Shown here piece by piece: positions 1,579-51,120 of a DNA stretch of 64,000 bases. Where the stretch lies: contig OX597839.1 of NCBI GenBank assembly GCA_951406725.2, positions 12,214,001 to 12,278,000 of the forward strand. The letters are read 5' to 3'. The notes below the pieces were generated by a model, which saw only the letters and a program-made list of their open reading frames with translations, did no database searches and was not told the DNA's origin. A program made the translations under genes and the position numbers. The number at the start of each line of letters is the position of its first letter. Within the stretch, counting starts at the first letter, position 1. This stretch comes from Octopus vulgaris. Lineage: Eukaryota.

Positions 1579-1672
1579 AGTTTTCTTTCCTTAGTCGAGT
1601 TCCAGATTATCTTTGCAATTTCGGCTGGTTATACTCGAGATTGCTCCAATCTGGCCAGCCCAAGGAAAAACT
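1579..1672 (-). ncRNA. Non-circularly permuted hammerhead-like motif (divergent copy, G5A core change)
   Basis: Minus strand: GGCTGG-CCAGATT-gga-GCAAT-C-TCGAGT-ataa-CCAGCC-GAAA-TTGC-aaagat-AATCTGG-a-ACTCGA-CTAAGGA; four perfect helices. Confidence 0.65.
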
Positions 1673-3090: not shown

Positions 3091-3287
3091 ATGTTTAGAT
3101 TCCTAACTACATTCAATCCACATTTTGCGATGCAGTTTAACCTAAAACATTTTGCGTATCGTATAGTCGTGATTCATATCCAGCCCTTCTGGGTATTAGC
3201 GCGCGTCTACGATGAGTCTATGATTTTACAAATAATTTACCATCATTTTTTCCCATTTTAATGCATATTTTTTTTAATAAAGGGAAG

Positions 3288-3853
3288 TAACTCTCAAACT
3301 TCACACCAATATGCGTGCTCATATGCGACGTAATATCACATCAGCAGCATTTCCTCACACCCTCCTTGCACTTGGCGATGAAAATGGTAATATTGCATAT
3401 ATATATATACCAGGGGATGAAAATGGTAATATTGCCATCGATTCCATTTGTACCATTGTTAAGACGCCTTCTGATCTCAGAGATGCAGTGTTCCCAGATC
3501 TACAAGCTAATTATCAGAATATGGATTGGATTGGCAAAAAGGCTATACTGGCCCCGAGGAATAAAACTGTTCACCATATTAATGATGAAATGCTAAAACT
3601 CATTCCTGGGGAAGTCTATGTATATCAGTCTATCGATACAACTCCTGACCCAGAGGACGTCATCAACTATCCAATAGAAGTACTCAATTCCTTTGAGCAC
3701 CCCGGACTACCACCACACTTTCTCAAACTTAAAGTTGGTGCCCTTATAATGCTCATCAGAAATTTGGTTCCCCCAAAACAATGCAATGGCACACGTTTGA
3801 TCGTTAAGTCCTTATCTCCCACCGTAAGCTTATATCAATATTTGCCTGAATAA
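3288..3853 (+). pseudogene. Helitron PIF1-like helicase fragment (LxLxxNMR through the 2B region)
   Basis: LKLHTNMRAH...AILAPRN...LNSFEHPGLPPHFLKLKVGALIMLIRNL...CNGTRL; truncated on both sides and enclosed by Helitron termini. Confidence 0.92.
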
Positions 3854-27609: not shown

Positions 27610-28110
27610 ACCTACCCCTTTCTTAAGCCGTTGTTCTCACGCGTTCAAAATAAATTTTCTTTCGTTCGGCTTAACAACCCTTAACGTTTGTATTACTGTT
27701 ATTCTACCTGTCCTGTCGTTTACTGTTTTTATTTGTATTTCTACTGTCTTGTATTGTTTTTACTGTCCTGTTTTTGTTACCCCCTCCTCAAAAAATCTCA
27801 AATTTTATTTAATTTGCTTTGCGGGAAGGACCGTTTCACCGGAGTTGTGTTTCGCCTTTACCTTCGAAACACGGAGTAGACGAAACAGAGGCGGTTGAAG
27901 AAGGGGAATTTTCTTTGTGTTGTATGTCTTGTACCCTGTTTTTTCGTTGTTTAAAAAAATGTCCGTTTCCATGGTTCTGTTTTTATGTTTTCGTTTCTCA
28001 TTGTGTTCGACGTTTTTTTGGTGTCCTGTACCCATATATGCATGTATATACACATATAGATGTAGGTACCTATATATATGTATGTATATATGCATATGCT
28101 TTATTTATTA
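27610..28110 (+). mobile_element. TA-flanked retroelement-like 3' end family carrying the permuted hammerhead
   Basis: Homologous to 41142-41522 (+), 41556-41932 (-), 50925-51110 (+) and about 4230-4405 (-). Confidence 0.7.
27825..27906 (+). ncRNA. Non-circularly permuted hammerhead-like motif
   Basis: GAAGG..GTTTC..GTGT-T-TCGCCT-tta-CCTTC-GAAA-CAC..GAAAC..AGGCGG-TTGAAGA. Confidence 0.65.
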
Positions 28111-40182: not shown

Positions 40183-41125
40183 CTAGCAGCATAGCCCGGC
40201 GTTGCCCGGGTATGTAAGAGCCCCTAGTAGGCAACGACTAATCCCAATTTAATCCTTTCCCTCTAGGGAACGAAGGCGCATGTGTAGGTTGCAATGTCTT
40301 CTCTTCACTCGAATACTTCTGTGTATACAATGTTCCTAGCTGCCCCTTTGGGCGAAAACATGAAAACATCATTGCGCCTCCCAACGCGTGAACAGCCCAC
40401 GTAGAGTTGACCGTGGGCGAAGCACTGTTCGCCCAACTGTAACCCAGCGACTTGTAGCGTTTGGCCTTGGGATTTATTGATGGACATTGCGAAGCAGAGT
40501 TTAACAGGAAACTGAGAACGTCTGAAGTGGATTCGGAGGTCAGCGCCCGACGGTTGAAGGTGCATGCGTGGAATGAAGACGTCCTCTCCCTTCCCACAAC
40601 CGGTAAGTATTGTGGCCGTTATTAAATGTGGTGGCAAATGTTTCACAACCAGACGTGTGCCGTTGCACTGTTTAGGTGGAACCAAATTCCTGATGAGCAT
40701 AATGGGCGCACCGACTTTTAACTTCAGGATGTGTGGCGGCAGGCCTGGCGGTTCAAGTGAATTCAGGAATTCAACAGGATAATCGGCAAGCTCGGCGGGG
40801 TCTGCTGTCCTATCAATAGATTTGTAGACGTGGACATCACCAGGAATAGCTTCAAGTAGCTGGATATTGATGGAGTTGAGAGTTAAAAAGGTCGAGTTGC
40901 GTCCCCTAGACAGTATGTGGTTTGTGTTTCTGATTCTCGACCCCATGTCGAATATATCGATTTTTTTCAGAACTGGGGGAACTTTTCAAAATTTTCGCTC
41001 CGTTAGTTTTGAATTATGACATTGGGCTATGTGTGTGTCAAGTTTCATCAGAATCGGTTGAAAGCCGTGGTCAGGGTGAGGGTACAACCTGACAGACACA
41101 CAGGCAGACAAATTGCCGTTTATAT
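40183..41125 (-). mobile_element. Helitron deletion derivative carrying the PIF1 C-terminus
   Basis: A|CTAG at 40183, hairpin CCCGGCGTTGCCCGGG; 40877-41125 is nearly identical to 62007-62265. Confidence 0.9.
40305..40946 (-). pseudogene. Helitron PIF1 helicase C-terminal ORF (213 aa, chimeric N-terminus)
   Basis: LNSLEPPGLPPH..LKVGAPIMLIRNL..CNGTRL..RSQFPVKLCFAMSINKSQGQTL..CFAHGQLYVGCSRV; Walker A/B absent. Confidence 0.93.
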
Positions 41126-41231
41126 ATATATATATATATATTTTTGTACTGTCGTTACTGTCTCGTTTTTTTACCATTTTTTACCCCTCTGCGAAAAGAT
41201 CTCAGAATTTTAATTGATTTGCTTTTCGCAG

Positions 41232-41316
41232 GAAGGAAAGTTTCTTTTCGAAGATACGTCTCGCTTTTATCCTTCGAAACGTAGAGTAGATGAAACCTTA
41301 ACGACTGAAGAAGGGG
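41232..41316 (+). ncRNA. Non-circularly permuted hammerhead-like motif with an intact core
   Basis: GAAGGA..GTTTC..TACGT-C-TCGCT-ttta-TCCTTC-GAAA-CGTA..GAAAC..AACGA-CTGAAGA. Confidence 0.72.
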
Positions 41317-41521
41317 TTTTTTCGTTGTGTTAACTGTCCTGTACTCCATTTTTTGTTGTTTTTAAAAAAATGTCCTGTTCCTTTGGTTTGTGTCTATGTT
41401 TTCGTTTCTCTATGTGTTCGACGTCCCTTTGGTGTCCTGTACTCATATATGCGTGTATATGTACATGTAGAGGTAGGTACGTACATATATGTTTATATAT
41501 ATGCATATGTTTTATTTCTTT

Positions 41522-41555
<34 letters not shown>

Positions 41556-41756
41556 TAATAAATAAAATATATGCATACATACAAACATATATGTACGTAC
41601 CTACATCTACATGTATATATACATGCATATATAAATATATATACGTGAGTACAGGACACCACAACTAGACGTAGAACTCAACGAGAAACGAAAACGGAAA
41701 AACCATTTTTTTACAACAGAAAAACAGAGTACAGGACATACTACACAAGGAAAAAT

Positions 41757-41838
41757 CCCCTATCATCAGCTGTCACTGGTTCGACTCTAGCGTGTTTTGA
41801 AGGCAAGACAGGACACGACTCGCCAAACTAGTCCTTCC
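41757..41838 (-). ncRNA. Non-circularly permuted hammerhead-like motif (G12A)
   Basis: GAAGG-a-CTAGTTTG..CGTGT-C-CTGTC-ttg-CCTTC-AAAA-CACG..CGAACCAG-t-GACAG-CTGATGA. Confidence 0.68.
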
Positions 41839-42722
41839 TGCGAGAGAATTAAAATAAAATTACCTCGCAGAGGGGTAAAAACAAGCAAGAAAAAAATGTA
41901 ACACAAACAGGACGTACAAACGATACGAATAAAAATATATATATATATATGAATATATTTTCTTTTATATGTTTCAGCTCTGAGACTGTGGCCATGCTGG
42001 GACACAGTGTGCGTGTGTAATGTATATGTTTGTGTGTGCGTGCAGTGTATGTGTATATGTATGTACACACACACACACACATATACTCATACAGAGTTTT
42101 AAAAATCGATCGTATGGTATACAGCTGATAATTTGTCGGTAAAGTACGTTCGCTGACTCGGTGTTCGTTGGGTATTCGATTAATGAAAGACACGTACTGG
42201 GGTCGATCTAATTGACTGCCCCGCCTCCCCAGAAATAACTAAAAATATTCAATGCCACACTAGTTAACAACATCACTTAGATACCCCTTGGCCATTGTAA
42301 TACCGCTTAAAGTGAGAAAAATACCAACTTGAGTTTCTTAATAAGTATCGCTCACCGTGGGATGAAAGCTAAAAAAAAAACCTACGCCTATCTACACTTC
42401 AGTATTGCTTCTTAGGCGTTTTAAAAATCTTTATAGACTACACTACAAAAAACATTCCTACACTACTTAAAAACGTTTACTTCAGGATGCTCATAGAAAA
42501 AAAAAAACACAGAAGATTTTGTTAAACGCTTACAATGGAAGGCCCTACAGTTTGACGGAGCATTACCTCTAACAGCAACTGAACATTTCGACATTAACCA
42601 CGGAACTTTTCTCCACGTGTTAAAGACCTTATTCACTTCCCCGCCGATTTGCTGAACCTTATTTCCACGATGATGTTTAGCAAGTACACTTACTCTAACC
42701 TGTTTCAATCTAAATTGGCTAA

Positions 42723-50720: not shown

Positions 50721-51120
50721 AAATGCGCAAATCCTTGGCGGGACTCAAGAGTCATATAAGGGCCACACATTGCATTATCAATGACTCATTTCAATGATTC
50801 TTTCTAGCAATGGTTTTACTCATATACAAAAAAGAAGCCACTCTACTATGTATGTATGTATATCTGTCTGTATCTATGTATGTATGTCAATGCCGTGTAT
50901 ACCATAAGGTCTGCAATTCAAACGGAGGCCTCAAATCAGGAGTAGATGGACAGCAGCCAACTGATGAAGGGTTGTTATGTTACTTTTCTTGTTTTCCATT
51001 TGTCACTCTCGTTGTTTGCATACCCAAGTTTGTCTTCGTATTTCATGTTGTTTTCGTATTTCGTATTGTTTACGTTTTGTGACGTCCTGTACTCATTATA
51101 TGCATATATACATATATTCG

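Follow-up and report, generated by a model that had tools for sequence, protein, structure and literature searches.

The window analysed here is a stretch of 64,000 nucleotides of the Octopus vulgaris genome (assembly GCA_951406725.2, contig OX597839.1, positions 12,214,001 to 12,278,000 of the forward strand). A copy of a repeat, designated family 1, occupies 1465–1780 of the window, flanked on one side by (ACAT)n and on the other by (TA)n, with its T-rich strand on the minus strand; 1489–1770 are covered by the profile match of the family. We put at about 0.6 the probability that positions 1582–1703 of this copy, on the minus strand, belong to a decayed member of a high-copy, non-coding repeat in the consensus of which all core nucleotides and helices of a hammerhead stand in a knotted, non-circularly permuted order, its intact relatives being predicted to cut after C17. 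The label "hammerhead" for the octopus domain is itself a prediction from its anatomy.

Among the small ribozymes, hammerheads have been studied best. In the scheme of Eckert et al. (2023, PMC10085705) the hammerhead is made up of three blocks: S (stem III, cut site, stem I), G (stem II, GAAA, stem III) and C (stem I, CUGANGA, stem II). Non-circular hammerhead permutations were reported only in that year, from environmental RNA (PMC10085705).

Architecture of the window copy

All parts of the domain lie on the minus strand and are given here 5′ to 3′, as read from the sequence, the alignments and the pair read-out of the alignment files. The domain opens with the 5′ strand of a helix termed P0 (TTTGTT, 1703–1698; TTTCTT in the family consensus), which is followed by the hairpin Px, consisting of CCAAGTAA (1697–1690), a loop and TTCCTTGG (1667–1660). 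The 5′ strand of stem II, GGCTGG (1660–1655), starts at G10.1 and pairs with 1628–1623 in standard pairs throughout, so placed that P0 and Px lie between it and the CUGANGA box. The 5′ strand of helix B, CCAGATT (1654–1648), pairs with 1608–1602. A linker, GGA (1647–1645), leads into block S (1644–1633), which comprises the stem III strand GCAAT (1644–1640), C17 (1639) and the stem I strand TCGAGT (1638–1633); the predicted cut would fall between 1639 and 1638. A second linker, ATAA (1632–1629), precedes block G, in which the stem II strand CCAGCC (1628–1623), GAA (1622–1620) and the stem III strand ATTGC (1619–1615, with A15.1 at 1619) follow one another directly. The linker AAAGAT (1614–1609) forms an internal loop with the GGA linker and is followed by the 3′ strand of helix B, AATCTGG (1608–1602), a single A, the 3′ strand of stem I, ACTCGA (1600–1595), and the core box CTAAGGA (1594–1588). 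The 3′ strand of P0, AAGAAA (1587–1582), stands immediately 3′ of A9 and is identified by the alignment, the pair read-out and the folds.

A first-pass annotation of this DNA had described four perfectly paired helices (GCAAT/ATTGC, TCGAGT/ACTCGA, GGCTGG/CCAGCC and CCAGATT/AATCTGG) and had remarked that the partner of the strand preceding GAAA lies upstream and does not consist of the bases that follow the core box. The pair read-out agrees on both points: every pair in helices I, II, III and B is standard. As these four helices cross each other, the fold is knotted. The two remaining helices are less well preserved. P0 (1703–1698 with 1587–1582) contains one G-G mismatch, and Px is damaged by a G-to-T change and by the loss of a G that it shares with stem II.

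The same annotation had judged the copy probably inactive on account of its core, and had suggested testing whether a family consensus restores CTGAGGA. Position 1592 is an A in place of the G5 of the family, and G5 is required in hammerheads. The box reads CTGANGA in 23 of 30 family 1 copies (16 CTGAGGA and 7 CTGAAGA) and GAAA is present in 23 of 30; only two of the 30, the window copy among them, have an A at G5. The family consensus thus has CTGAGGA, and the A is a private change; none of the outcomes that the annotation had named as refuting came about. Since G5 is altered and both P0 and Px are damaged, the window copy is most likely an inactive, mutated relic. Taken alone it is an ordinary dead copy, and its value lies in being a further independent sequence solution of the same fold.

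Families sharing the strand order

At least 1831 candidate family 1 copies were found in a search of the 2.8-Gb genome (227 contigs). The 40 copies that were scored are 84–93% identical over most of the query, and the family was seen as dispersed copies and one close inverted pair. Four further families have the same wiring. Family 2 (at least 3491 candidates; scored copies 85–93% identical; core intact in 26 of 30) is represented in the window at 27.8 kb on the plus strand. Family 3 (at least 2830 candidates; 94–99% identity; core intact in all 33 aligned copies) is represented at 41.2 kb, also on the plus strand. Family 5 (at least 2640 candidates; identity mostly 95–99%; core intact in 32 of 33) lies at 41528–41900 on the minus strand, tail to tail with the family 3 copy. 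Family 4 (at least 1339 candidates; identity mostly 100% over 250 nt; core intact in nine of nine) was found in a flank by the strand-order descriptor described below.

The domains of the three other window copies have their own lesions. That of family 2 (27763–27909, plus strand; 135.8 bits with the covariance model described below) has the core TTGAAGA, with C3 changed to T, and one mismatch in helix B. That of family 3 (41166–41319, plus strand; 130.1 bits) has an intact core, CTGAAGA, and a G-to-A change that weakens stem I, and that of family 5 (41754–41893, minus strand; 139.5 bits) combines an intact core, CTGATGA, with a change of G12 to A.

The strand order common to the families is P0, the Px hairpin, stem II, helix B, block S, a linker of 3–5 nt, block G, helix B, stem I, CUGANGA and P0. 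In every family the stem II strand comes from upstream of block S and the bases 3′ of A9 pair with an upstream strand to form P0, which starts directly after A9; Px ends directly at G10.1, and both P0 and Px covary between families. Helix B varies from 5 to 10 bp and its links to stem III from 4 to 9 nt. The suggestion of the first-pass annotation that the region forms a four-way junction holds up in this form. The particular pairing that it proposed, of AAGAAAACT with AGTTTTTCCTT, does not: it turns up when the mutated window copy is folded for minimum energy, but the other families lack it and conserve P0 and Px.

The unpaired positions are more uniform than the helices. All family consensuses keep C17, GAAA and CUGANGA, and among the core positions N7 alone differs (G/A in one family, A in three and U in one). 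Among six representative copies, H17 is always C and the pair G10.1–C11.1 is invariant, and the first stem III pair (A15.1–U16.1) is U-A in six of six. H17 is U in a subgroup of family 5 and is never G in the consensuses.

A sixth, degenerate family was also encountered (L059:1059–1200 and L037:441–582; 63 and 55 bits), with the box CTGATGA and helices that have in part decayed; the window holds a weaker fragment of this kind at 50801–50974 on the plus strand.

Covariation, folding and chance

A strict descriptor of the strand order has 14 matches in 298 kb of fetched loci (both strands) and none in each of ten first-order Markov shuffles of the same 298 kb. It has no match over the window because every one of the four copies there carries at least one disabling change: the copies at 1.6 and 27.8 kb fail the core pattern, and stem I of the 41.2-kb copy is too short.

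When one natural copy is taken from each family or subfamily (six in all), both partners have changed at 25 of 31 pair positions and 177 of 186 cells are paired, compared to 2–10 of 31 positions and 70–90 of 186 cells when the partner strand is slid by 1–3 columns. The nine unpaired cells are mostly alignment offsets or known bulges. Stems I, II, III and B change by paired substitutions across five families and one subfamily, which supports the inference of the first-pass annotation that the fold was under selection in separate element families.

A covariance model was built on the nested helices of families 2, 3 and 5, and all of its 75 matches at E up to 1 were counted, unselected for intact helices. 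In these matches 93.1% of the cells are paired (40.4–49.0% in slid controls), 23 of 32 pairs have changed on both sides (10–17), 237 cells have changed on both sides (15–52) and the covariation score is 0.318 (0.037–0.086); none of 500 shuffles matched the observed covariation values. Helix B has changed on both sides at seven of seven pairs in the families other than family 1. Stem I lies outside the model, yet it has both-side changes at four of its six pairs. These figures are to be read with the caveats that copies of one family are not independent and that a model-based alignment favours its own helices. The model recovered families 2, 3 and 5 and the degenerate sixth family, a single family 1 copy (21.6 bits) and no copy of family 4; the two groups of families were therefore counted separately and are joined only in the hand-made table. 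A joint MAFFT alignment of all families placed GAAA one column out of register between the two groups and was excluded from the counts. In the second group (30 family 1 copies with three of family 4), the pairings are kept as well, at 92.9% standard pair cells against 25.6–52.9% with the partner moved by 1–3 columns.

When intact copies are folded for minimum energy, P0, Px, helix B and stem III are recovered (P0 in the intact copy L003). The window copy folds with a z-score of −1.35, and 19 of 200 shuffles fold equally well. Folding energy by itself is weak evidence here; the two knotted helices lie outside what the method can count.

No hammerhead or other ribozyme family of Rfam matches at the gathering score in the whole window, and around the four copies no ribozyme appears at E up to 10, where the only matches are microRNA-like and driven by microsatellites. 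The strand order of the domain is one that nested models cannot represent. The window is extremely rich in microsatellites, a run of (TA)n, (ACAT)n or (AC)n recurring every few kb; there are 508 Rfam matches at E up to 10, and the best 150 of the 508 are nearly all to microRNA families, all below their thresholds.

The silence of Rfam and the modest folding z-scores are what would be expected if ordinary repeat hairpins happened to lie near GAAA and CTGANGA-like words. We give almost no credence to such a chance resemblance, in view of the empty shuffled sets against 14 descriptor matches in the real loci, and of five families with the same order and compensating changes.

Covariation proves a selected fold, not catalysis, and would also be expected of a conserved structured RNA, for example one used in recognition or priming by a reverse transcriptase, that no longer cuts or never did, its boxes being a relic or serving folding only. 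The core strand is moreover broken at a place where no active hammerhead is known to be broken. Against this explanation, the unpaired nucleotides kept in the five families are exactly the catalytic ones of hammerheads, N7, which is free in hammerheads, is the one that varies, and the consensuses never have G at H17. The closest known wiring, that of the type-SGC hammerheads, also cleaves in vitro (PMC10085705). We therefore consider a purely structural role unlikely, though far from negligible.

Proposed fold

In the permuted-hammerhead interpretation that we favour, P0 and Px would stack on one another, and a four-way junction would arise from them together with stem II and the core. This junction would leave A9 beside G10.1, as in ordinary hammerheads, and helix B would tie together the far ends of stems I and II, as in type-SGC.

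The internal loop between helix B and stem III in the window copy, GGA opposite AAAGAT, presumably resembles a kink-turn, with a 3-nt bulge followed by tandem G-A pairs. By our reckoning, this fit extends to families 1 and 4b only. The equivalent loop of families 2 and 3, AGUA opposite GAA, we take to resemble a loop E motif.

The knotted single-molecule fold requires helix B to run back along stem III, a strain that on geometric grounds would be relieved if the domain formed between two RNAs or neighbouring units, the S/G hairpin loop of one being gripped by those strands of another that belong to stems I and II, and cutting taking place in trans or in dimers. The occurrence of copies in tandem and in close pairs is compatible with this arrangement, as is an 8-nt palindrome, CTGGCCAG, at the junction of stem II and helix B in family 1. 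Families 2, 3 and 5 do not have this palindrome, and the presumed kink-turn at the B/III loop of family 1 would itself supply the fold-back. A single molecule suffices for cleavage by type-SGC hammerheads, which have these four helices as well (PMC10085705), and we regard the two-molecule arrangement as quite improbable.

Repeat organization

The copies are about 300–430 nt long, T-rich and non-coding; their 5′ borders are fixed, and they lie within runs of (TA)n or (ACAT)n. They occur as solos, as inverted or tandem pairs and, in family 4, as long arrays. The three arrays examined by self-BLAST (L124, L128 and L140, at C6:50.12 Mb, C5:97.86 Mb and C4:50.19 Mb) have tandem units of 829–860 nt, neighbouring units being 99.9% identical in two arrays and 98.9% identical in the third; Tandem Repeats Finder, run with a longest period of 500, is blind to units of this length. 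The strict descriptor finds one motif in most family 4 units. The 250-nt core is 100% identical across many family 4 array loci, and therefore the amplification is very recent. Beyond the motif, the family 4 units contain a long CT-rich, low-complexity stretch.

If the domain cuts, a single cut in each unit, whether in a tandem array or in a read-through transcript, would probably set free RNAs of unit length, which could be circularised and copied back into DNA, as has been proposed for retrozymes.

None of the upstream extensions of the copies runs into a reading frame, and no long extension is common to them. Candidates for an autonomous partner near the copies, namely Pif1/Helitron fragments, a mariner-type transposase and LINE-type frames (RVT_1, zf-RVT), were considered and rejected. 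A frame upstream of three family 5 copies lies within a duplicated block on one contig and is not part of the element body. In the window, frames with a Pif1 helicase 2B domain are present at 3281–3853 on the plus strand and 40305–40985 on the minus strand (E of 4e-14 and 4e-16); they are part of a repeated family and are likely Helitron-type fragments. The family 3 copy (41138–41549, plus strand) and the family 5 copy (41528–41900, minus strand) overlap at their TA-rich ends, and the pair forms a long inverted repeat that matches MIR4208 of Rfam at 62.9 bits, below threshold. A separate repeat of about 117 nt (L100:1912–2028 and about 50 other loci) adjoins many ribozyme-bearing copies in either orientation.

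Truncated copies

Cutting before reverse transcription might leave a footprint in the 5′ ends of the copies. We therefore searched for copies by their 3′ part alone and mapped their starts relative to N1.1. In family 3, eight of 40 copies are 5′-truncated, with starts at −95, −62, −56, −24, −22, 0, +7 and +7. In family 5, 18 of 31 are truncated, with starts spread from −105 to +82 and three at +5. The interval from 0 to +7, chosen after the data had been seen, contains the starts of six of these 26 copies (L206:1437, L203:1703, L193:1703, L232:1441, L237:1707 and L227:2585), against about one expected if the starts were even. This pile-up is suggestive, and a stop of reverse transcription at the folded domain explains it equally well: truncated copies heaped 5–7 nt past the site are what the structural explanation given above would produce. 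The starts at 5–7 nt after N1.1 fall in the linker between stems I and II, and in most of the six copies a TA-rich run lies directly upstream.

Strength of the ribozyme interpretation

Several observations weigh against a cutting, permuted hammerhead. The break in the chain lies within the conserved core, a situation that Eckert et al. assumed not to arise (PMC10085705), and no structure in the sources available to us shows two helices entering between A9 and G10.1. The helices were delimited by eye in each family, by seeking complementarity. The covariation signal arises from comparison between families; stem II is invariant within families 2, 3 and 5 and varies only between the two family groups. 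Within family 1, both-side changes affect 10 of 38 pairs, compared to 4–10 in slid controls, a pattern expected of copies that decay neutrally. The z-scores for folding are modest (−0.9 to −2.7), and family 4 requires junction linkers of 2 nt and a bulge in helix B. Among the truncated copies, only one of 26 starts exactly at N1.1 and five start 5–7 nt downstream, and the dispersed copies carry the motif about 110–130 nt inside the 5′ border, not at it.

Should the RNA cut, a hammerhead core could accommodate a broken chain and a junction of helices at A9/G10.1, the scheme of six permutations would be incomplete, and descriptor and Rfam searches would have overlooked a ribozyme of which animal DNA holds tens of thousands of copies. 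It would also offer a concrete and testable candidate for RNA processing by (TA)n-targeting repeats, and possibly by Naiad elements.

Comparison with known elements and ribozymes

Animal non-LTR retrozymes carry type I hammerheads (PMC7229834; bioRxiv 10.64898/2026.07.22.740005). The octopus families resemble them as short non-coding repeats that occur as solos, pairs and tandem arrays, with one motif in most family 4 units; the tandem units characteristic of retrozymes are found in family 4 only. They differ from them in that the motif is not of type I and is missed by Rfam, and in that the family 4 units are 829–860 nt long.

Naiads, a group of Penelope-like elements (PLEs), target (TA)n, form partial tandems and inverted neighbours and are described as having no canonical hammerhead (Craig et al. 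2021, PMC8557442). Eight of them are described with a "half core", the second half of which lies 35–50 nt away (PMC8557442). The octopus copies share with Naiads the (TA)n runs, the partial tandems, the adjacent inverted copies and the lack of a canonical hammerhead. In contrast to Naiads, they have a fixed 5′ border, and no joined reverse-transcriptase or N-terminal GIY-YIG frame was found with them. At the GIY-YIG loci inspected (30, and six that were extended), the nuclease of the PLEs encountered is C-terminal wherever a frame was found, several loci having a 781-aa frame, and no motif lies downstream on the same strand. The permuted motif is absent downstream at loci L183–L188 (e.g. C16:20836000–20843500). 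Three short motifs are absent from one supplement of PMC8557442.

We hold the odds to be roughly even that an S-G-C hammerhead opened at A9/G10.1 and re-closed by a four-way junction would be the working ribozyme of an animal retroelement superfamily with thousands of copies per family, cutting tandem transcripts to units, and that it may be the ribozyme that Naiads reportedly lack.

The closest relatives in wiring are the type-SGC hammerheads (HRIMA-1 and variants), which have a natural S-G-C order and cleave in vitro (Eckert, Friedrich, Weinberg and Weinberg 2023, PMC10085705). They have a linker of about 3 nt between stems I and II, a helix by which stems I and II are tied on their other sides, and a link of 0–44 nt from this helix to stem III (PMC10085705). 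They come from metatranscriptomes, and according to that paper none were found in the genomes of known organisms, except one weak bacterial candidate of type GCS. It also takes the blocks to be uninterruptible.

The octopus domain has many features of a hammerhead: CUGANGA 3′ of stem I in five family consensuses, GAAA, an H17 other than G, G10.1–C11.1 and helix covariation; the window copy itself departs from CUGANGA at G5. Like type-SGC, it places S before G before CUGANGA, with linkers of 3–5 nt, a fourth helix (B) and links of 4–9 nt, and its core is knotted by two pseudoknots with all hammerhead core nucleotides kept. Unlike type-SGC, it has the 5′ strand of stem II and one strand of helix B upstream of block S. 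The strand from A9 into stem II is discontinuous in every family: block C is split at A9/G10.1, and the break admits two further helices, P0 and Px. The far end of helix B is joined to stem III on both strands. Moreover, the copies number thousands in a 2.8-Gb genome that carries endonuclease-bearing PLEs. The wiring is in no paper that we searched, and "type-SGC" appears only in PMC10085705, whose supplementary variants could bear on this. The predicted ribozyme, an S-G-C hammerhead split at A9/G10.1, thus appears not to have been described before in the literature searched.

Insertions at the same step of the core are known on a smaller scale. PLE hammerheads keep a nucleotide between A9 and G10.1 (PMC4209133), and in chrysanthemum chlorotic mottle viroid (CChMVd) the hammerhead of the plus strand contains an additional A10 (PMC3705267). 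One bulged nucleotide stands at this step in those hammerheads, compared to two helices and the chain ends in the octopus repeat. The order of the octopus domain is that of type-SGC shifted round by one step, with the ends of the chain between A9 and G10.1.
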